Of a stretch of DNA of 36,099 bases, positions 1,632-35,303 are shown piece by piece. The notes beneath the pieces are model-generated. The model searched no databases. It was given only the letters and a program-made list of their open reading frames with translations, and was not told the origin of the DNA. Origin of the DNA: Candidatus Micrarchaeota archaeon. GTDB taxonomy: Archaea; B1Sed10-29; B47-G15. The first letter of the stretch is position 1. Every line of letters begins with the position of its first letter. The stretch lies in assembly GCA_003660975.1 (NCBI GenBank), contig QMVG01000008.1, forward strand, positions 1-36,099, in the 5' to 3' direction. A program made the translations under genes and the position numbers.

Positions 1632-1705
1632 GGGCCCGTAGCTCAGCCTGGTAGAGCACTTGGCTTTTAACCAAGGAGTCGCGGGTTCAAATCCCGTCGG
1701 GCCCG
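1632..1705 (+). tRNA. tRNA-Lys(UUU)
   Basis: GGGCCCG acceptor stem, anticodon arm CTTGG-CT TTT AA-CCAAG, GGTTCAAATCC T-arm; no encoded CCA; TTATAAATA upstream. Confidence 0.97.
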
Positions 1706-1707
1706 TT

Positions 1708-2100
1708 ATGAAAAGCAAAAGCAGAATTTTATTGTTTAGACTTGTCTTTGCAATTTCTCTTCTCATCATATTCATTCTACTATTACAGGAATTCCGCCAT
1801 TTTGGCAATCCAATTAAAAGAGAAGCATACTTTGATGAGAAATTGAACGAAAGGATAAGGGATTGTTATGCTCTTAGGATGGACTCACCCCAAGTTTCTG
1901 TACACTATAAAGCCCATACATATATGAATATAGAAACACTGCTCAGGCACACAAAGATACCTGTGTCAGAGGTTAGGTTCAGGAGCTGTCCTGACAGCTT
2001 TTCATTGTGTAACCCAGATGAAGTTTACGTGGAATATGAGAGCTATGCGACAGCCATTGTCCGCTTTGAAAATGGCATTTGTTATATTGATTTCCGTTAA
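1708..2100 (+). CDS. hypothetical protein with N-terminal membrane anchor
   Basis: ATG 2 nt after the tRNA; basic N-terminus followed by a hydrophobic helix. Confidence 0.7.
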   Translation: MKSKSRILLFRLVFAISLLIIFILLLQEFRHFGNPIKREAYFDEKLNERIRDCYALRMDSPQVSVHYKAHTYMNIETLLRHTKIPVSEVRFRSCPDSFSLCNPDEVYVEYESYATAIVRFENGICYIDFR

Positions 2101-2138
2101 GCTGAAAGCCTTAAATACATCAAATATTTAATCACATT

Positions 2139-3773
2139 ATGAAGTATTTTGCTCTAATTTGCTTTTTACTTGTTGTATTGCCAAGTGCATATCCCATATA
2201 CGCAGGTAATATAGGCTATGCCAAGATGCTGTATTCTGTTGAAGGAGATATGAAAGACGCCACTATGTACCTACATGTGCCTTTTGACAGCGAGTATCAA
2301 AAGGTGGAACAGATAACAGCACTTTCCACATATGAAGACGAGATAGGCAGATATGCAAAGCTGACAGGAAACTTTAAGTTTGAAGCTATCATTGATGTAA
2401 ATACCTCTGCTGCTGAGATAAACAGCAATCCTCTTATGCCTTTGAATCTTCCTTCTATGAAAGAATATCTTAAAAGCAGTGGGAAAATTACCCCAAATAA
2501 CACACAAATACGCGCGTTAGCTAAAGAGATAAGTCACGGACTGCCAAGAGAGCTTGATGTCATAAAAGCAGTCGTTGATTGGGTTCGCCAGAATATAGAA
2601 TATTATTATGATGAAAATAGAACCATTACTGTGCTAACAGCACAACAATTGCTTCAAACAAAGAAAGGCGTTTGCGGAGATTTTTCAGTTCTCACAGCTT
2701 CTTTGCTTCGTTCTTTGGGTATTCCTACCAAGTATATAGAAGGTTGGCAGTATACTGGCGAGAGCTTCCAATTGCATGCATGGCTTGAGGCTTATGTTCC
2801 TGGCACTGGCTGGGTATCTGTTGACCCAACGAACGGTGAAATAGGGCTGTTAGACGCAGGCCATATAAAGGTTATGGAAGGCGTGGACCCAAGCGAGATG
2901 GCCAACAAAATAAGGTATGTTGGTACTTTGCCAGATTATAAAATTAAGCGAAATGTCACTTTGTTAACATACAAGCCATTTTACTCTCTCTTTGACACGC
3001 AGCTTTCTATTTCGCCACGCATAGCAGGACCCTCTGAGCTTGTAAGAGCAAATCTTGAGATAAAAAATCTTAAGGATACATATATGATAGCCTCCTTAAA
3101 CATTGTAACAACAAAAGGACTCAGACTACTTGACGATTTTAAAACAGTCATTTTGCCTCCTAGGTCCAAGAAGAATGTTAGTTTTGCATTTTACGTGCCT
3201 GATGACTTAGAGGAAGGTTATTCTTACACCTATTTTGTAAAAATTTACGGTCCAAATGTGAGCGTTACAGAAGCGATGCAAGCAGAGGCATCAAAAGAGT
3301 CAAAACCAATAAGCAACATAGAGGTCAACACGCTTTACAAATACCTCAGAAATAATTCCATATCTATTGCCTTTTTGCTGCACAATGTGGGAACTGTGGC
3401 TATAGAAAACATAGAAGCAAGCTTGTCATGTGGTGCTTTTAAACAAAAAAAATCTATTGCATTGCTCCCAGGAGAAAAGAAGAGCATTGACTTTAGCATT
3501 CCTGTTGTCGCTAATAAAAGTTCCTATATATTTACATTGGAGCTGACTTATGAAGGGAAGAGGCAGATGCAGAGCATATATTTTGAGATTCCAAGCAACG
3601 AAGGAGAGCAGGAGAACAGTGAGGGAATCCCTGTATTCAAGGTGATTATAACTGTTCTAATTGCTGTTCTCATTTTTGTTTTCATACTTCTCATTGTTCC
3701 TTATATTAGCAAAGGCAAAAAACCATTTGCATCGCGCATATCTCTACATAAAATAATAAAGAAAAAGAAATGA
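2139..3773 (+). CDS. exported transglutaminase-like protein with Ig/CARDB-like domains and C-terminal anchor
   Basis: Signal peptide; Cys-His-Asp motifs GVCGDF, HAWLE, WVSVDPT; C-terminal TM helix and basic tail. Confidence 0.85.
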   Translation: MKYFALICFLLVVLPSAYPIYAGNIGYAKMLYSVEGDMKDATMYLHVPFDSEYQKVEQITALSTYEDEIGRYAKLTGNFKFEAIIDVNTSAAEINSNPLMPLNLPSMKEYLKSSGKITPNNTQIRALAKEISHGLPRELDVIKAVVDWVRQNIEYYYDENRTITVLTAQQLLQTKKGVCGDFSVLTASLLRSLGIPTKYIEGWQYTGESFQLHAWLEAYVPGTGWVSVDPTNGEIGLLDAGHIKVMEGVDPSEMANKIRYVGTLPDYKIKRNVTLLTYKPFYSLFDTQLSISPRIAGPSELVRANLEIKNLKDTYMIASLNIVTTKGLRLLDDFKTVILPPRSKKNVSFAFYVPDDLEEGYSYTYFVKIYGPNVSVTEAMQAEASKESKPISNIEVNTLYKYLRNNSISIAFLLHNVGTVAIENIEASLSCGAFKQKKSIALLPGEKKSIDFSIPVVANKSSYIFTLELTYEGKRQMQSIYFEIPSNEGEQENSEGIPVFKVIITVLIAVLIFVFILLIVPYISKGKKPFASRISLHKIIKKKK

Positions 3774-3807: not shown

Positions 3808-3881
3808 GCGCCAGTAGTCTAGTTTGGTTAGGACATAGGCTTGCCAAGCCTATAGCCCGGGTTCAAATCCCGGCTGGCGCA
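3808..3881 (+). tRNA. tRNA-Gly(GCC)
   Basis: GCGCCAG/CTGGCGC acceptor stem, TAGGC-TT GCC AA-GCCTA anticodon arm. Confidence 0.97.
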
Positions 3882-3915
3882 CTGCTTTTTATTTGTGATT
3901 GTCCATTATCAAGGT

Positions 3916-4272
3916 ATGAGCAAAAGAAAGGCAAAGCCAAAGTGGATAAAAGAGATTGCTAAAAAAAGAATTCTCAGCCTACTTGAGCAGGCAAAAGAGA
4001 CAGTTTTTTCTAATTCAGACAGAACTAAGCGTTACGTGGAGCTGGCATTGGCCTTAAGCAAAAAGTATAATGTGAGCATTGGCCCTGATTGGAAAAAACA
4101 CGTATGTAAAAACTGCCACACTGTTCTCATAGAGGGCTTTAACCTGCAGGTTAGGACATCAAAGAAGACAGGCACAGTAATTTACAAATGCAAGGAATGT
4201 GGAGCTGTTAAGAGATATCCTTACAAAGGCAAAGTATTTATAAAAGAAAAAACACTAAACACTACACATTGA
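3916..4272 (+). CDS. rnp4: RNase P protein component 4 (Rpp21)
   Basis: IAKKRILSL..RYVELA, zinc ligands CKNC and CKEC, KRYPY. Confidence 0.9.
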   Translation: MSKRKAKPKWIKEIAKKRILSLLEQAKETVFSNSDRTKRYVELALALSKKYNVSIGPDWKKHVCKNCHTVLIEGFNLQVRTSKKTGTVIYKCKECGAVKRYPYKGKVFIKEKTLNTTH

Positions 4273-28325: not shown

Positions 28326-29405
28326 CTATACCTCCCTATTTATTAGGTATTCTGCTATGCCTATGAGATATTGCTTTGCTTCCTCAGCAAGCTCCACATT
28401 TTCTATTGCCTCCAAGGCCTCAGAAGCCAGCTCTCTTGCTTTATTTCTAGTGTAATCCAAAGCTCCTGTGTCCCTCATAATCTGCTTTGCTTCCTCAATC
28501 TCTTGCTCAGTTATATGCAGTTTTCCCAATAGGGACAGCAATTTCTTTTTCTGCTCAGGTGAGCCTTTCTCCAGAGCCTTTATAACCAGAATTGTTTTTT
28601 TACCATCTCTCAAATCACTGCCCACAGGTTTACCAAGCTTTTTCACATCTCCAAACATGCCTAAAATGTCATCCTGCAGTTGAAATGCCTGGCCAAGAGG
28701 AATAGCATAGTTGCTGAATGCCTCTCTCTGCTCTTCACTTCCTCCTCCCAATGCCCAGCCCATAAGCAATGGGGCTTCTATAGTGTATATGCTTGTTTTT
28801 GTTTTGTGTATATTCATCGTATGTTCCTCTGTGACCTCCTCTGCTTTCATCTCTTCTGATAACATGTCAAGAAACTGGCCGAAGTTTGTTGACTGGTTGG
28901 CATACTCATACACTTTGAGCGCTTCAACAATCCTTGCCTGGTCAAAACCAGAATTTAAAAGTGCTTCAACAGCTAGGCTCTGCACATAATCACCAGCTAT
29001 GATGGCCATTCCTTCTGAAAAACGCTTTGCCCTCATTTCGCTGCCTTGAAAGTGTTTTTTGTAATAATCCAGGTAAGCAACGTGCAAAGTGGGCCCTCCT
29101 CTCCTCAAATCATCCTGGTCCATAATATCATCATGGATCAGGAAATATCCCTCCATGAGTTCTATTGACGCAGAGGCTTTGTATATCTTATCCATCTCCT
29201 TTCCACCAACCCCCTCATAAGCAGCCACCATAAAAGCAGGTCTCAATCTCTTGCCTCCTCTCATGTTGTAGTCTCTAATCCATTCCAGATAATCGGCTGC
29301 TCCTGGGTACTCTTTTTTTGCATTTTCTATTTTCTCATCGAGCAATCGCTCTAACTCATCATTTATTTTCTCCCTGTATTCAGAAAGCTTTTTCAAAACA
29401 TCCAT
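28326..29405 (-). CDS. short-chain trans-prenyl diphosphate synthase A
   Basis: GGKRLRP, YFLIHDDIMDQDDLRRG, FQLQDDILG, GKPVGSDLRDGK. Confidence 0.92.
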   Translation of the reverse strand: MDVLKKLSEYREKINDELERLLDEKIENAKKEYPGAADYLEWIRDYNMRGGKRLRPAFMVAAYEGVGGKEMDKIYKASASIELMEGYFLIHDDIMDQDDLRRGGPTLHVAYLDYYKKHFQGSEMRAKRFSEGMAIIAGDYVQSLAVEALLNSGFDQARIVEALKVYEYANQSTNFGQFLDMLSEEMKAEEVTEEHTMNIHKTKTSIYTIEAPLLMGWALGGGSEEQREAFSNYAIPLGQAFQLQDDILGMFGDVKKLGKPVGSDLRDGKKTILVIKALEKGSPEQKKKLLSLLGKLHITEQEIEEAKQIMRDTGALDYTRNKARELASEALEAIENVELAEEAKQYLIGIAEYLINREV

Positions 29406-29415
29406 AATATCCACC

Positions 29416-30504
29416 TTAGAAGTCTCTCTCAACTATAAATCTGGTGAAAGCCTCAAGAGCCTCTTTTGCTCTGCCTTCCTTTAACAGGCCATTTACGTTT
29501 TCCCATGTCTCATTTACAAGCTCTCTTGCAAACTGCTTTGCATATTCTATAGAGCCGTATTTCTTCATGAGCTCTATTGCCTTTTTTATTTTTTCTCTGT
29601 CCTTTGTGTGCTCATTTAGTGTTTTTAGAAGCCATTCTTTTTCCTCATCTGTGCAATGCTTTAAGGTGTGCACTACCATTAATGTTCTCTTTCCCTCTGT
29701 TATGTCGCTTCCTATATATTCTTTCGTGTATTGGGCTTTGCCACTGGTAGCTGTTAAGTTTAAGATATCATCTTGTATCTGAAATGCTATTCCTATGGTC
29801 TCTGCATACTCTCCTATTTTTCTTTCATTTTCCTCGTCCAGGCCTGCCAGGACAGCAGCCATCCTTGCAGCCATTCTTGCCAATGTGCCTGTCTTGTATG
29901 CACACATCTGCAGATACTGCTCTTCAGTTATGTTGTCTGCATCGCCATGGCCATTGTGCCAATATATGTCTGTTCCCTGGCCAATGGAAATGTTTATCAT
30001 TTCCTGTGCATAGATGTCATACAATCTCTTCAACGTTTTTTCATCAACGCCAGGTCTGTTTTTAAGTATAGACACAAGAGGAAAATAATACATGCTATTG
30101 CCAAAGTTGATTGCGATGTCCTCCCCATACTTTATGTGCGCAGCTGGAAGCCCTCTTCTTGTCTCTGATTTGTCCTCTATGTCATCTATAACCAGTGTTC
30201 CGTTATGGACTAATTCTGGAATGATGGCAAAGTCAATATATCTGTTTGCATCTCCCCCTAAAGCTTCTATTAGGAGCATGAAGAGGACAGGTCTCCATCT
30301 CTTGCCCCCTGTTTCTAAAAAATCCCACATAGGTTCTATTATCGCTTTATTTACTGCTTCAACATCATATTCATACCTTGCCTTTCCAGCTATCTTTTCA
30401 ATGTCTTCTTTTGTCATTGGCTTTGGAAAATAACTTCGGATCATTCCATCTATCAGGGGTTTTTTCTGCTTCAAAATATCCGTAATTTTTATTTTGTCTG
30501 ACAT
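29416..30504 (-). CDS. trans-prenyl diphosphate synthase B (type III GGPPS-like motifs)
   Basis: GGKRWRP, HNGTLVIDDIEDKSETRRG, GQGTDIYW, FQIQDD; AGGTGA Shine-Dalgarno. Confidence 0.92.
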   Translation of the reverse strand: MSDKIKITDILKQKKPLIDGMIRSYFPKPMTKEDIEKIAGKARYEYDVEAVNKAIIEPMWDFLETGGKRWRPVLFMLLIEALGGDANRYIDFAIIPELVHNGTLVIDDIEDKSETRRGLPAAHIKYGEDIAINFGNSMYYFPLVSILKNRPGVDEKTLKRLYDIYAQEMINISIGQGTDIYWHNGHGDADNITEEQYLQMCAYKTGTLARMAARMAAVLAGLDEENERKIGEYAETIGIAFQIQDDILNLTATSGKAQYTKEYIGSDITEGKRTLMVVHTLKHCTDEEKEWLLKTLNEHTKDREKIKKAIELMKKYGSIEYAKQFARELVNETWENVNGLLKEGRAKEALEAFTRFIVERDF

Positions 30505-30580
30505 TTCTATATCACCTAAAACTCGTAATACTCTTTTTTGTGAGCGACTATATATAAAATTAACCACGTCAATTGTAGAA

Positions 30581-32110
30581 TCAACCCTTTAAGAGCAACC
30601 TGTTTACAACGAAATCCCTGTCCATGCTTGCAAGAAAAGGCCCTAATCTAGGTCCTCTGCTCTTCCCTATGAAAAGAAGATATATGGTTGAAAAGAGCTG
30701 CTTTACGTCTGTTTTCTTTCCCTCTTCATATATAACTGCTTGCAAGCTTTCACCATCTATGCCTTCCTTAACTTTTTCAGCTATTTTCTTTAAGGACTGC
30801 TTTGTTTTGTCATCTATTTCAAGCTCTGGCAAGGACTCTTTTACAGTGAATTTCACTTGCTCAGGCGCGTATTTCTTTACCCAGTTCCAGGCCAAAGCCA
30901 ACCTCCTTCTTGTTCTTCCTTTCCCTTCAATCTCTGGGTACAGTTTTCTTAAAACCTCAATCGCTTTCTCAATATCTCCCAAGGCAATCTGGATTGCATT
31001 TACACATGAGGAGAATGGGGGCTGTTCTGGCATTTCGTCTCTTTTCTCAATCACAGACAACCTGTACCTATCAACCTCATTCTCGTCAATCTCTTTTTCC
31101 TTGCCGTAATACATTCTCTCGGCCTTATCAAAATAGTTATATGTGTTCAACAAGTCCATGTCAAAGCTTATTTCAAATGACCTATTTATCCTCGTATTGT
31201 ACATATACCTTATAACTTCTGCTTCGTAAACCTCAAGCAGCTGGGAAACAGTTACAACATTCCCCGCGCTGCTGCTCATTTTCTCCTTCTGCCCTTTAAA
31301 GTAAACGAACTCATACATAGGGCCTATAAAACCTCTGCCACCGAAAACCTTTTTGTATATCGGTATTGTAGTTGTCATGCTCCCTCCTGCTGCCTGGTGT
31401 TCTTTTCCAGAGCTTTCGAAGTCAACATCATAATACGCCAGTCTCATAGGCCAGTCAACGCGCCATGGGAGCTTTATGATGCCTTTCCTTCTAAAATCAA
31501 ATTCCCCCTCATTGCCACAGTCACAGACATATTTTATTTTGTAATCGCCAAGCCATTCAAATCTTGTTGTGTCCTTTCCACATTTTTCACAGTAAACACG
31601 GGCTGGCATCCAGTCATCTGGAAGAGGCTCTTTTCTGTACTTGTCAAGCACCGACTTTATGAAATCTCTGTTTTCCAATGCCTTCTTTATTTCATCAGAG
31701 AAAACACCTTTTTCGTATTCTTCTCTCATGCTGATATATTTTGCTTCAACGCCACACTGCTCTGCTTCCTTCATGAATGCATCTTTGAAGTGGGAGGCAT
31801 AGGAATCATGACAGCCCCAAGGGTCTGGGGTTTTCGTTACAGGTAAGCCTATATACTCTTCCCATTCCTTTGGCACGCCTTTGGGCACTTTCCTGAATCT
31901 GTCGTAGTCATCCCAGACATACTGGTAAACAGCATTAACACCTATGTCCAACAGCGCCCTGTAAACGAAATCCTGGGTTAGCACTTCTCTGAAATTTCCC
32001 GCGTGTATTACTCCTGATGGAGTTATTCCTGACTCTACAATGTAGGTGTCCTTTTCCTTTGCTTTGATTATCTGCTCTGCATACTTGTAAGCCCAGTGGC
32101 TTTTCTCCAT
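30581..32110 (-). CDS. lysS: class I lysyl-tRNA synthetase
   Basis: SGITPSGVIHAGNFRE, KLPWRVDWPMR, KMSSSAGN, GPRLGPF. Confidence 0.96.
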   Translation of the reverse strand: MEKSHWAYKYAEQIIKAKEKDTYIVESGITPSGVIHAGNFREVLTQDFVYRALLDIGVNAVYQYVWDDYDRFRKVPKGVPKEWEEYIGLPVTKTPDPWGCHDSYASHFKDAFMKEAEQCGVEAKYISMREEYEKGVFSDEIKKALENRDFIKSVLDKYRKEPLPDDWMPARVYCEKCGKDTTRFEWLGDYKIKYVCDCGNEGEFDFRRKGIIKLPWRVDWPMRLAYYDVDFESSGKEHQAAGGSMTTTIPIYKKVFGGRGFIGPMYEFVYFKGQKEKMSSSAGNVVTVSQLLEVYEAEVIRYMYNTRINRSFEISFDMDLLNTYNYFDKAERMYYGKEKEIDENEVDRYRLSVIEKRDEMPEQPPFSSCVNAIQIALGDIEKAIEVLRKLYPEIEGKGRTRRRLALAWNWVKKYAPEQVKFTVKESLPELEIDDKTKQSLKKIAEKVKEGIDGESLQAVIYEEGKKTDVKQLFSTIYLLFIGKSRGPRLGPFLASMDRDFVVNRLLLKG

Positions 32111-32112
32111 AA

Positions 32113-32186
32113 CGGGCCCGACGGGATTTGAACCCGCGACAACTCGGTTAAGAGCCGAGTGCTCTACCAGGCTGAGCTACGGGCCC
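32113..32186 (-). tRNA. tRNA-Lys(CUU)
   Basis: Reverse complement GGGCCCGTAGCTCAG...CTCGG-CT CTT AA-CCGAG...GGGCCCG. Confidence 0.97.
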
Positions 32187-33455
32187 TTACTTCTTTTCCA
32201 AGCGTTTAAAGTCTAGGTATTTCCATAGTACTTTCGGTATGTCAACAGAACCATCTTCATTTTGGTTGTTCTCTATAATTGCTATCATGGTTCTGGAAGT
32301 TGCCAGAGCAGTGTTGTTTAACGTGTGAACATATCCCTTTTCTCCACCTTCCTTTCCAAATCTTATGTTCAACCTCCTTGCTTGGTAATCAGTGCAATTG
32401 GAATTAGAGCCAATTTCCTTATACTCTCCAGCACTCGGAAACCAGCCTTCAATATCATATTTCTTGGCAGCCACTGTTCCTATGTCACCAGTGCAAACAT
32501 TAACCACCCTGTAAGGTATCCCCAAACTTTCATATAACTCTTCTGCATTCCTCTGCAATTCTTCAAGAAAATCCCACGAATCTTCTGGAAGGCAGAATAT
32601 AAACTGTTCAACTTTGTTGAATTGGTGCATCCTGAACAGTCCCTTTGAATACTTCCCATGCGAGCCGACCTCTCTCCTGAAGCAGGGGCTTATCCCAGTC
32701 AGCTTTATCGGAAGCTCTGCTGGGTCTATTATCTCATCCATAAACATGGCTGCCATTGGGTGTTCTGATGTTGCTATTAGATACAGGTCATCATTTTCTA
32801 TTTTATACATAACGGTTTCAAAGTCAGCAAGGTCAGTAACGCCTTCATATGCTCTCCTGTTCATCATATAGGGCGGTTCTACTGCCACATAGCCTTTCTT
32901 TCTCATGTGGTCCAGTGCAAAGTTTATGAGAGCATAGTCAAGCTTTACAAGGTCATCCTTTATGTAGTAGAATCTGGCCCCTGCCACTTTGGCTCCTCTC
33001 TCAATGTCTATGAGGCCCAGCGCCTCAAGAATTTCTATGTGGTTTTTTACAGGGAAGTCAAAATCTTTTGGCTCGCCCCAACGCTTTATCTCAACATTGT
33101 CCTTTTCATCTTCCCCGTATGGAACTGAATCATGGAGCAAATTAGGCAATTGCATCCACAAGTGTTTTCTTTTCTTTCCGAGTTCTTCATATTCCTTTTC
33201 TTTACGCTTTATCTCAACATTTATTTTCTTGACTGCTTTTTGCAACTCTTTACTGTCTTTCCCTTTCTTTCTCATCTCTGCTATCTGGGTGCTCTTTTCG
33301 TTTCTCTCTTTTCTCAATCTGTCTATTTCTTTCTTCAATTCTCTCCATTTTTTATCCAGAGATATCAAGTCATCTAATGGAAAATCGCTTTTTCTCTTTT
33401 CCAGGTTTTTTCTAACAACTTCTGGTTTTTCCCTTATCAGCTTTATGTCGATCAT
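32187..33455 (-). CDS. serS: seryl-tRNA synthetase (standard type)
   Basis: MIDIKLIRE start, LIATSEHP, CFRRE, GLFRMHQFNKVEQF, SNCTDYQARRL, HTLNNT. Confidence 0.97.
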   Translation of the reverse strand: MIDIKLIREKPEVVRKNLEKRKSDFPLDDLISLDKKWRELKKEIDRLRKERNEKSTQIAEMRKKGKDSKELQKAVKKINVEIKRKEKEYEELGKKRKHLWMQLPNLLHDSVPYGEDEKDNVEIKRWGEPKDFDFPVKNHIEILEALGLIDIERGAKVAGARFYYIKDDLVKLDYALINFALDHMRKKGYVAVEPPYMMNRRAYEGVTDLADFETVMYKIENDDLYLIATSEHPMAAMFMDEIIDPAELPIKLTGISPCFRREVGSHGKYSKGLFRMHQFNKVEQFIFCLPEDSWDFLEELQRNAEELYESLGIPYRVVNVCTGDIGTVAAKKYDIEGWFPSAGEYKEIGSNSNCTDYQARRLNIRFGKEGGEKGYVHTLNNTALATSRTMIAIIENNQNEDGSVDIPKVLWKYLDFKRLEKK

Positions 33456-33487
33456 AGTTATCTCCAAGCATTTCTCATTTAAATTAA

Positions 33488-33569
33488 CGCTGGGAGTGGG
33501 ACTCGAACCCACGAACCCTTGCGGGAACCAGCTCTCCAGGCTGGCGCGTTGCCACTCCGCCATCCCAGC
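33488..33569 (-). tRNA. tRNA-Ser(GGA)
   Basis: GCTGGGA/TCCCAGC acceptor stem, CCAGC-CT GGA GA-GCTGG anticodon arm, long variable arm CCC-GCAA-GGG, G discriminator. Confidence 0.95.
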
Positions 33570-33574
33570 ATAGT

Positions 33575-33646
33575 TCTAACTCTAAGCCCTTTTTACAGCA
33601 GCCTGAGAAATGGAGGCTGCGTCTAGCATGAGGACTTAGAATCAGA
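33575..33646 (-). ncRNA. long hairpin RNA directly 5' of tRNA-Ser
   Basis: 16-bp outer stem with 3 G-U pairs on the minus strand plus a 7-bp inner stem. Confidence 0.55.
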
Positions 33647-33937: not shown

Positions 33938-35303
33938 TTATCCACCGCCTGGATCTAAGAAAGAACAAATAGTATAGAGCATTACTCCGAACATCTTGGC
34001 CGTAATAAAAGGTTCTTTCGGAATAAACTTCAGAACAACCAAACCAACCAAAATATTAGCCAATATCCACAGATTGTATAAGCAAGCCGAAAACATAAAG
34101 TAGAAGAACCTAACAACATACCTCTTAGATGTCGTTCTTGCCTTGAAATCTTGCTTAACTCTATAGGAAGTTTCTATTTCCCATCTTTTTCCGTACAACT
34201 CAAATGGGTATTGAGCATTTTCTTCTTTTACATTAAGATTTGTAGCAAACACCCTTTTAACTTCGTTTTCGTCATTGACTATAACCAACTTAAACTTAAC
34301 CTGATCGAAATTCTTTCTTCCCATCACATAATCTAAGATTTTAGGAGCTTCGTATTCCTTCATCAATTTCTTAATTGCTGTATTCTGAACGGCTGGCATT
34401 AACTACTTTACCTTATGCTCCTGCAAAACCTGAATACATTTAACATTAAAGAAACCTCTATCAACATAAACATTATTGATGTTGATTTTCTTTTTAGCAT
34501 AAGCTAATAACTCATTAAGAACTTTATGTTTTTGGGAAAACACACCCATGAGAGTAGCCAATAAAGTAAACCTTCTCCCACTTTCAACAATGTTAATTGT
34601 AGCGAATCTAAAACAATGCGTAGTTCCCTTTTGAGGTTTTGTTTCGCAAACCATTAAATCGTTCTTATCTCCGTAGTAAAGCCAATCATGTAGATCAGCG
34701 GCAACATCTAACTTTTTCTTCTTGAAAACATTGTTTTTCTTAGCTATTCTGAAAATTTCTTCAAACGCTTTCATGAAAGATTTTTAATTCCTCTGTGTCA
34801 AATTTCCTTATATGATAAAGCAAAGTATTGGAAGCGGGTGTATTTTCCTTCATAACAAATCTGAATGTTCTAGAACCATTGTGTGTAAAATCATGATTCA
34901 TAGCGATATGCGTTAGCAGATCGAGAAATTTGCTCGTGTCGTATTTTGCAGTATAGTGAAGTTTAAAATCAAGATAAGGATAAACTGTTTCTTTGATTAA
35001 TTTGCACAGCTTTCTTAGTTCCTTAGTTTTAGATTGTTCTATATCCTTGTGATTCAAATTAAACTTGATCGGTTTAACAAGTTTACTTGTAGGAGTGAAC
35101 TTGGCATTACAATCCTTACACTTGTATCTTTGTTTCTTACCATCTTTTGTTATGTTATATCCGAACTTAACGACATTAGATGAACCACAAAATCTGCAAA
35201 CAACATTATCCTTATCGGTTTTTCTAAACCTTCCAGATTTGTTTCTAGAAATATTTTTATATTCTCTCTTCCTACTGTCTTTTGTGAGGTTTGGTTTTCG
35301 CAT
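33938..35303 (-). pseudogene. disrupted ISH3/IS4-like DDE transposase with N-terminal Zn ribbon
   Basis: Three collinear ORFs; CRFC..KQRYKCKDC, ADLHD, VDRGF, YGKRWEIETSYR; frameshift near 34770 and in-frame TAG at 34403-34405. Confidence 0.85.

Follow-up and report, generated by a model that had tools for sequence, protein, structure and literature searches.

Cognate tRNA Genes Adjoin Several Housekeeping Aminoacyl-tRNA Synthetase Genes in an Archaeal Genome and Its Relatives

The joining of tRNA genes to the genes of the aminoacyl-tRNA synthetases that charge them was explored in an archaeal genome (GenBank assembly GCA_003660975.1), starting from one 36,099-nucleotide (nt) contig, QMVG01000008.1, which is called the window here. 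The window carries a minus-strand string of tRNA-Ser(GGA), the seryl-tRNA synthetase gene serS, tRNA-Lys(CUU) and the class I lysyl-tRNA synthetase gene lysK (called lysS in the initial annotation of this DNA), in which each tRNA gene stands before the gene of its own charging enzyme. Joins of synthetase genes to their cognate tRNA genes were found for six amino acids in the genome, and four of them recurred widely among its relatives. We consider it fairly probable that several housekeeping synthetase genes are co-transcribed with their cognate tRNA, that the two parts are separated by RNase P and RNase Z, and that the arrangement is lineage-wide. To our knowledge, the regulation of synthetase genes in archaea is largely unknown, and archaea are, as far as we know, without T-box leaders, which many bacteria use to link the expression of synthetases to the charging of their tRNAs.

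Cognate Joins in the Window and across the Genome

Four tRNA genes were detected in the whole window by ARAGORN, and all four were confirmed by Rfam RF00005. The initial annotation had described the string as tRNA-Ser, 32 nt, serS, 0 nt, tRNA-Lys, TT and lysS, and this anatomy was confirmed by ARAGORN, Rfam, Pfam/NCBIfam and the sequence itself (Table 1). The 3' end of tRNA-Ser lies at 33488 and the serS ATG at 33455, whereas the serS stop codon TAA (32189-32187) directly adjoins position 1 of tRNA-Lys (32186), with a gap of 0 nt. The start codon assigned to lysK (ATG 32110) matches the N-termini of relatives, which follow the pattern M-x(0-4)-HWAD. A Shine-Dalgarno-like motif precedes serS, whereas lysK, with its 2-nt spacer, has none; the earlier statement that there is no room for a promoter or a Shine-Dalgarno sequence before this gene was right.

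The assembly comprises 1.33 Mb in 130 contigs, of which the window is contig C8, and its G+C content is 43% as a whole and 39-42% in the main contigs. The nearest named relatives of lysK were 55-59% identical and came from metagenome-assembled genomes (MAGs) labelled Candidatus Iainarchaeum, Micrarchaeota and Nanobdellati. From these labels, the organism was treated as an Iainarchaeota-like DPANN archaeon. The small G+C-rich contigs C6, C96, C108 and C109 (52-65%) bear tRNA genes with an encoded CCA and are probably bacterial contamination; the 10 tRNAs on them were excluded, and the archaeal tRNA set consisted of 38 genes. The synthetase genes were catalogued by Pfam and NCBIfam searches, which gave approximately 20 genes, and the open reading frames (ORFs) beside every tRNA were listed and then named by Pfam.

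A same-strand cognate tRNA adjoined 6 of the ~20 synthetase genes, namely those for Ser, Lys, Phe, His, Cys and Arg. The tRNA was located upstream of the gene in the first five cases and downstream in the case of Arg, such that the proposed rule of a tRNA preceding its synthetase stood for Ser, Lys, Phe, His and Cys but not for argS. Each of these synthetase families was represented by a single gene of that specificity, and each joined tRNA was the sole gene with its anticodon; they are therefore the tRNAs in use rather than spare copies. A same-strand ORF of at least 100 amino acids (aa) started within 120 nt downstream of 19 of the 38 archaeal tRNAs. Synthetases made up five of these 19 downstream ORFs, and the tRNA was cognate in all five.

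The probability of obtaining at least five synthetases in 19 draws from 1200-1600 genes was 2e-6 to 8e-6 (hypergeometric). Moreover, when the labels of the 38 archaeal tRNAs were shuffled, the exact probability that all six joined tRNAs were cognate was 1.2e-8, and more than four cognate matches occurred in 0 of 200,000 shuffles. Cognate pairing in this genome is more than chance. The initial annotation had judged two consecutive cognate pairs unlikely to arise by chance and had proposed comparing all synthetase genes with a shuffled expectation. Both the judgement and the expected enrichment were borne out by the six pairs found genome-wide and by the shuffles, and the Lys pairing was kept across a group of order or class rank.

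Conservation of the Joins among Relatives

The six synthetases were searched in 30 relatives, of which 17 belonged to the same order, 13 to the same class and none to the same family. Family searches for the Tyr/Trp and Asp/Asn synthetases were run in the same relatives, and the survey of the relatives covered these specificities only. The tRNAs of the relatives were drawn from four sources: ARAGORN with and without its intron search, Rfam, nhmmer profiles for each tRNA type, and reading of the anticodon loop.

tRNA-Lys was located upstream of lysK within 130 nt at 11, and within 1.5 kb at 18, of the 21 assessable loci. Of 23 assessable hisS loci, 11 had tRNA-His upstream within 135 nt and 14 had it within the flank; of 25 assessable cysS loci, 11 had tRNA-Cys upstream within 175 nt (one of them, L106, a partial match) and 16 had it within 720 nt. 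Downstream of argS, tRNA-Arg(UCU) was found within 300 nt at 15 and within ~1 kb at 18 of 26 assessable loci, and one additional argS locus had tRNA-Arg on the opposite strand. When the near and far classes were pooled, the Lys, His, Cys and Arg pairings were each present in at least 8 of the 11 sampled families. Furthermore, tRNA-Lys came after serS in 17 of 27 relatives, with a gap of at most 7 nt in eight of them.

Joins for further amino acids were found at smaller numbers of loci. tRNA-Tyr was positioned 25-31 nt before tyrS at 4 of 27 loci, and asnS was followed after 36 nt by tRNA-Asn at 1 of 28. No tRNA-Asp was found beside aspS in ~28 relatives, and no tRNA-Trp was adjacent to its synthetase in the relatives, one being located ~0.8 kb downstream in G006. 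A cognate join was thus seen somewhere in the group for eight amino acids.

Several relatives are without class I lysK and carry a bacterial-type class II lysyl-tRNA synthetase (LysRS) instead. In one of them, G026, the class II LysRS gene (TIGR00499, 548 bits) lies 20 nt after tRNA-Lys(UUU) and downstream of serS, in the slot that is held by class I lysK in its genus-mate G023. Judged from gene order, G026 is a case of in-place non-orthologous replacement in which the tRNA-Lys slot was kept. No tRNA-Lys was found near the class II LysRS genes of three other relatives (G019, G021 and G030).

The joins were also explored in other archaeal groups, with two unpublished genomes left out of the counts. 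In a Pacearchaeota-labelled group, 12 of 26 hisS loci had tRNA-His at most 62 nt upstream; among the relatives of a Methanosarcinales-labelled MAG, 3 of 28 had it at most 41 nt upstream. In the latter set, 4 of 27 loci had tRNA-Cys no more than 78 nt from cysS, and another 6 had it 0.7-1.4 kb upstream. The His and Cys joins thus extend beyond a single lineage. No same-strand tRNA-Lys was found upstream of lysK in the Aenigmatarchaeota, Woesearchaeota, Pacearchaeota, Undinarchaeota, Methanosarcinales-labelled MAG or bacterial loci (L188-L242), the sole exception being a Nanohaloarchaea-labelled locus with tRNA-Lys 731 nt upstream; likewise, no tRNA was near argS in 29 loci of an Aenigmatarchaeota-labelled group.

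The tRNA-Lys genes of the relatives contained one or two introns at non-canonical sites in the D-loop, the T-loop or the anticodon stem (L014-L035, L157, L159 and L164). ARAGORN alone was misleading because of such introns, and many of these tRNA-Lys genes, together with some for tRNA-Cys, tRNA-Arg, tRNA-His and tRNA-Gly, were missed or misnamed. The misnamed genes were re-read by eye or by nhmmer and the anticodon loop. His, Thr, Val and Gly(acc) calls in L016, L020, L021, L026 and L035 were rejected in favor of tRNA-Lys, a Leu call in L098 in favor of tRNA-Cys, Glu or Arg(gcg) calls in L131 and L134 in favor of tRNA-Arg, and a Ser(aga) call in L386 in favor of tRNA-His. As a practical warning, linkages between tRNA and synthetase genes are easily overlooked when the joined tRNAs have unusual introns.

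The sole apparent serS-leading tRNA-Ser in the relatives, an ARAGORN "tRNA-Ser(tga)" in L153, was rejected in the same manner and re-read as tRNA-Val(UAC) plus tRNA-Gly(GCC). The order tRNA-Val(UAC), tRNA-Gly(GCC), serS, tRNA-Lys, lysK is likely the older one in two families. In the window, tRNA-Ser(GGA) is preceded at a short distance by two consecutive minus-strand ORFs of 153 and 123 aa. The former has a match to the end of a DDE transposase (PF01609), and together they look like a split insertion sequence (IS) transposase. Such an element at this position fits a local rearrangement, and it may mark the event that placed tRNA-Ser 5' of serS in this genome only.

Spacers, Promoters and RNA Processing

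The spacers between each upstream tRNA and the start codon of its own synthetase were 2 (Lys), 17 (Cys), 18 (His), 20 (Phe) and 32 nt (Ser). Spacers of 2-32 nt are too short to contain a TATA box together with a leader. A Shine-Dalgarno-like motif is present in the Ser, His and Cys leaders. Many spacers in the relatives were 13-35 nt long and had such motifs, and the spacer sequences were not conserved. The 2-nt tRNA-lysK junction is peculiar to this genome; the tRNA-lysK spacers of five relatives were 13-22 nt, with a Shine-Dalgarno-like motif in three of the five. The initial annotation had envisaged a single tRNA-punctuated transcript that gives a leaderless lysS mRNA. This is plausible here from the sequence, but the five relatives do not support it as a general rule.

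A run of at least four T residues was found after 0 of the 5 synthetase-leading tRNAs versus 10 of the 33 other archaeal tRNAs. The genome has both an archaeal RNase P RNA (RF00373, 162 bits) and an RNase Z gene (TIGR02651, 356 bits). From the short spacers, the lack of T-runs and the presence of the RNase P RNA and RNase Z, we infer co-transcription followed by excision of the tRNA.

According to crude gene calls, TATA-like hexamers were most frequent at -30..-26 relative to start codons, and a Shine-Dalgarno-like motif preceded only 33% of the genes that come first in their unit. The position of the peak together with the low proportion of motifs suggests that the organism translates leaderless mRNAs and that these may be common.

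Promoter boxes were read by eye, and the promoter calls are weak. A TAAAAA element ~21-26 nt 5' of tRNA-Ser position 1 is offered as a candidate promoter of the whole tRNA-Ser/serS/tRNA-Lys/lysK unit. An internal TATA box for lysK within the tRNA-Lys gene was considered and rejected; the sole A/T stretch, the T-loop TTCAAAT at -22..-16 relative to the ATG, lies too near to it to serve as one. A Gibbs-type 8-mer search in the 60-nt regions preceding the 38 archaeal tRNA genes returned an A-rich motif without a fixed position, which was discarded.

Other tRNA junctions were also seen. In the window, tRNA-Lys(UUU) is followed by TT and then by the ATG (1708) of a 130-aa ORF without a Pfam match, which is the same junction as that of tRNA-Lys(CUU) and lysK. 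A similar junction was found between tRNA-Ser(CGA) and a 283-aa ORF without a Pfam match elsewhere in the genome. Also in the window, 13 nt separate tRNA-Gly(GCC) from a downstream 125-aa ORF that matches the RNase P protein subunit Rpr2/Rpp21 (PF04032, 59.9 bits); the gene of a tRNA-processing enzyme is thus led by a tRNA gene.

At least four stand-alone tRNAs precede copies of repeated modules composed of a hairpin and a T-run. These modules of ~45 nt have the inverted repeat AAGCTTTTTT...AAAAAAGCTT with T-runs, were located after the stand-alone tRNAs Val-CAC, Ile, Val-GAC, Ala-UGC and Leu-CAA, and may be terminators or mobile elements by their appearance. Different short repeats were found after tRNA-Gln, tRNA-Val(UAC) and tRNA-Leu genes.

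Proposed Mechanism and Alternative Explanations

In the proposed mechanism, the tRNA promoter would drive the synthetase gene in the upstream cases (Ser, Lys, Phe, His and Cys here, and Tyr in some relatives), with the tRNA forming the 5' part of the precursor. A cut by RNase Z after the discriminator would set free a synthetase mRNA whose leader is very short. The lysK mRNA would then start with UUAUG, that is, with a 2-nt leader that is effectively none, and the other released mRNAs would have leaders of 17-32 nt. In the downstream cases (Arg here and Asn in one relative), RNase P and RNase Z would excise the tRNA from the 3' trailer of the mRNA. The four genes tRNA-Ser, serS, tRNA-Lys and lysK in the window would probably form one transcript. 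The cognate pairing would be maintained by selection for coupled enzyme and tRNA supply or for keeping the pair together; the simplest gain from cognate joining would be that one promoter couples the supply of the enzyme to that of its substrate RNA. Selection on the pairing itself is argued for by the enrichment and persistence of cognate joins, by the local gains for Phe and Ser in this genome, and by the slot that was kept through a change of enzyme class. The conserved joins point to a simple coupling via shared transcription and RNA processing.

A number of results weigh against this mechanism. No tRNA was found within 400 nt of the remaining ~14 synthetase genes of this genome. Among the relatives, tRNA-Phe was found before pheS in 1 of 27, where only half of the tRNA was present at the end of the contig and its anticodon was not visible, and tRNA-Ser was found before serS in 0 of 25 assessable relatives. 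Non-cognate tRNAs occupied the position before serS instead, namely tRNA-Gly(GCC) in 6 relatives, tRNA-Asn in one and tRNA-Phe in another; the conservation of upstream cognate tRNAs proposed as a check in the initial annotation was found for Lys, His and Cys in many relatives but not for Ser and Phe. In G006 (L317, C2:1-2614), tRNA-Gly(GCC) and tRNA-Lys(CUU) are located 13-19 nt before a non-discriminating aspS, which encodes a class IIb enzyme and is cognate to neither; no class I lysK was found in that genome. Some spacers of the relatives are 50-120 nt long (L084 and L094) and could hold a promoter of their own. In the window, TTTAAA at -24..-19 of tRNA-Lys, inside the 3' end of serS, is a possible internal promoter, and it lies 7-11 nt closer to tRNA-Lys than the TATA-like boxes that the relatives with serS/tRNA-Lys gaps of 36-50 nt have at -35..-31. 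In L015, L019 and L026, a distance of 300-1100 nt with intervening ORFs separates the tRNA from the synthetase gene, and tight joining is therefore not essential. Finally, the relatives are kin to one another, so the genomes are not independent and the counts overstate the number of events.

Many of these points would be accommodated by neutral synteny, in which each gene has its own promoter and the joins are ancestral gene-order leftovers in compact genomes, without functional coupling. The TTTAAA inside serS, the TATA-like boxes of the relatives with wider gaps, the ORFs between tRNA-Lys and lysK, and the non-cognate joins around serS and aspS all agree with it, and the four widespread pairings could each derive from a single ancestral event. 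This explanation is nevertheless improbable in our view, as it has to face cognate joins for eight amino acids, of which those for Phe, Ser, Tyr and Asn are recent and local, as well as the label-shuffle probability. Moreover, a class II LysRS took the slot behind tRNA-Lys, the tRNA-His/hisS and tRNA-Cys/cysS joins recur in two other archaeal groups, and the spacers in this genome leave too little space for a TATA box with its leader. Co-inheritance or co-transfer, by which, as in a selfish operon, the two genes of a pair would be gained, lost or replaced together, has precedents in specialised pairs. SepRS, SepCysS and tRNACys travel as an operon in DPANN archaea (PMC8762117), and a CysRS paralogue travels with its tRNA (PMC11415595). 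The LysRS class also varies among close relatives. However, G026 exchanged the enzyme only; its archaeal-type tRNA-Lys and serS stayed, so that one partner was replaced and not the pair, and we regard this origin as very unlikely.

Autoregulation in cis, which the initial annotation had raised, would be an addition to co-transcription and not an alternative to it. The synthetase would bind its own tRNA within the precursor and block either RNase Z cleavage or access to the start codon, such that its output would track the ratio of free enzyme to tRNA. The geometry is suitable, with the start codon 2-32 nt from the enzyme-contacted acceptor end in the five upstream cases, and the mechanism would need a cognate tRNA, cognate identity being what is enriched. 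Feedback by the synthetase is a conjecture, and an unlikely one: the Arg and Asn tRNAs are located downstream of the gene and cannot occlude initiation, distances of 300-1100 nt between tRNA and gene are tolerated in relatives, and the spacer sequences are unconserved. The complete scheme is similarly doubtful. In it, tRNA promoters of Iainarchaeota-like DPANN archaea (and, for His and Cys, of other archaea as well) would express the synthetases, excision by RNase Z would make the mRNA, and the synthetase on the precursor tRNA would gate cleavage or the start codon. If true, it would provide archaea, which are not known to have T-boxes, with a cis-acting way to match synthetase to tRNA, and the swap from class I to class II LysRS would show that selection keeps the slot rather than the gene lineage.

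Comparison with Known Systems

In the pylT-pylS pair, the gene for tRNA-Pyl is followed by that for pyrrolysyl-tRNA synthetase. The joins described here resemble pylTS and SepRS-SepCysS-tRNACys in that, in archaea, a tRNA gene and the gene of its charging enzyme are neighbors on the same strand. They differ from these add-on systems in that the sole housekeeping synthetases and the sole isoacceptors (Lys CUU, His, Cys, Phe, Ser GGA and Arg UCU) are involved and that several amino acids are affected at once, throughout a lineage. A literature search, which had supplements and subscription journals outside its scope such that a prior description may exist, found no description of genome-wide joining of housekeeping synthetases and cognate tRNAs. 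It turned up only specialised pairs, namely SepRS with tRNACys and a CysRS paralogue with its tRNA. SepRS in DPANN archaea is often in an operon with SepCysS and sometimes with tRNACys (PMC8762117), and the CysRS paralogue is paired with its tRNA (PMC11415595).

Mitochondrial genomes show tRNA punctuation (PMC3790967). The likeness that the initial annotation had drawn lies in tRNAs located 0-2 nt from coding regions, the tRNA-Ser/serS junction being looser at 32 nt, and in mRNA ends that would be set by RNase P and RNase Z excision and leave a leaderless mRNA. Unlike mitochondria, the present organism has a free-standing archaeal genome that otherwise has ordinary promoters and in which only some genes are punctuated. 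Furthermore, the tRNA here is cognate to the product of the neighbor gene, a relation not known from mitochondrial punctuation, and most junctions keep a leader of 13-35 nt, many with a Shine-Dalgarno-like motif.

The E. coli thrU-tyrU-glyT-thrT-tufB operon is a mixed tRNA-protein operon. It likewise has tRNAs upstream of a translation-related protein gene, and there the single transcript is processed at the RNA level; it differs in being bacterial, in that its tRNAs are not cognate to EF-Tu, and in the normal leader before its protein gene. T-box leaders sense tRNA in trans by means of specifier and antiterminator elements; the E. coli thrS operator is a tRNA mimic, not a real tRNA gene. In both, as in the gene layout observed here, the mRNA leader links a synthetase gene with its cognate tRNA or with a mimic of that tRNA. 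Unlike the thrS operator, a real cognate tRNA is located 2-32 nt from the start codon here. No T-box was detected when the whole window was searched with Rfam 15 at the gathering threshold, which gave the four tRNA matches only, and the leaders are 2-32 nt long.

Coordinates and Neighboring Features

The locations of the features are collected in Table 1.

Table 1. Features of the window, of the genome (G000) and of one relative (G026). Locations without a contig label are positions in the window.
Feature	Location	Strand	Evidence and remarks
tRNA-Ser(GGA)	33488-33569	-	Rfam RF00005, 61.1 bits; ARAGORN ends 33487-33570; heads the unit
TAAAAA, weak TATA-like box	33590-33595	-	By eye; candidate promoter
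tRNA-Ser/serS spacer	33456-33487	-	32 nt; GGAG at 33465-33462, 6 nt before ATG; no run of at least four T
serS, seryl-tRNA synthetase, 422 aa	32187-33455	-	Pfam PF00587 and PF02403; NCBIfam TIGR00414, 540 bits
tRNA-Lys(CUU)	32113-32186	-	ARAGORN; Rfam RF00005, 70.8 bits; intronless; discriminator G at 32113
TT, entire spacer from tRNA-Lys discriminator to lysK ATG	32111-32112	-	Sequence
lysK-type class I lysyl-tRNA synthetase, 509 aa	30581-32110	-	PF01921, 363 bits; TIGR00467 lysS_arch, 460 bits
Two ORFs 5' of tRNA-Ser(GGA)	33938-34774	-	Resemble a split IS transposase
Two tandem polyprenyl synthetase genes	28326-30567	-	PF00348, 221 and 205 bits
tRNA-Lys(UUU)	1632-1705	+	TT, then ATG (1708) of 130-aa ORF; tRNA and ORF within 1632-2100
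tRNA-Gly(GCC)	3808-3881	+	13 nt, then Rpr2/Rpp21 ORF
Rpr2/Rpp21 ORF	3895-4272	+	PF04032
tRNA-Phe(GAA), pheS, pheT			20 nt between tRNA and pheS, pheT directly after: one string
tRNA-His(GUG), hisS			18 nt; spacer motif AGGTG
tRNA-Cys(GCA), cysS			17 nt; spacer motif GAGGGTGA
argS, tRNA-Arg(UCU)	C3:33222 (argS stop ends), C3:33221 (tRNA starts)		0 nt
tRNA-Ser(CGA)	G000:C4:44689-44771		Before 283-aa ORF
RNase P RNA	C3:101600-101857		RF00373
RNase Z	C2:74840-75727		TIGR02651
tRNA-Phe/pheS/pheT string to RNase Z	G000:C2:69716-75727		
Synthetase cluster with tRNA-Cys and cysS	G000:C5:34270-43812		tRNA-Cys and cysS on plus strand
CCA-adding enzyme gene	G000:C2:12912-14354		PF09249, PF21133
~45-nt repeat modules	G000:C1:67066-67185, C4:30009-30116, C3:51464-51572, C5:49034-49130, C4:56553-56597		After stand-alone tRNAs
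serS, tRNA-Lys(UUU), class II LysRS of L320	G026:C3:32800-37800		Within L320: serS 236-1489; tRNA-Lys(UUU) 1972-2047; class II LysRS 2068-3588

The two polyprenyl synthetase genes come after lysK in the window. A TTTTATATATAG box and an AGGTGAT motif before an ATG near 30503 suggest that they may have their own promoter.

Synthetase genes are clustered around tRNA-Cys and cysS on contig C5. Within 8 kb of this plus-strand pair, the minus strand carries two class I genes matching PF00133 (open frames of 969 and 783 aa) and one gene matching PF00587 (492 aa). Genes for tRNA maturation were also found near tRNA genes on contig C2: the RNase Z gene lies ~2 kb from the tRNA-Phe/pheS/pheT string, and the gene for the CCA-adding enzyme is convergent with tRNA-Arg(GCG), with coinciding ends.

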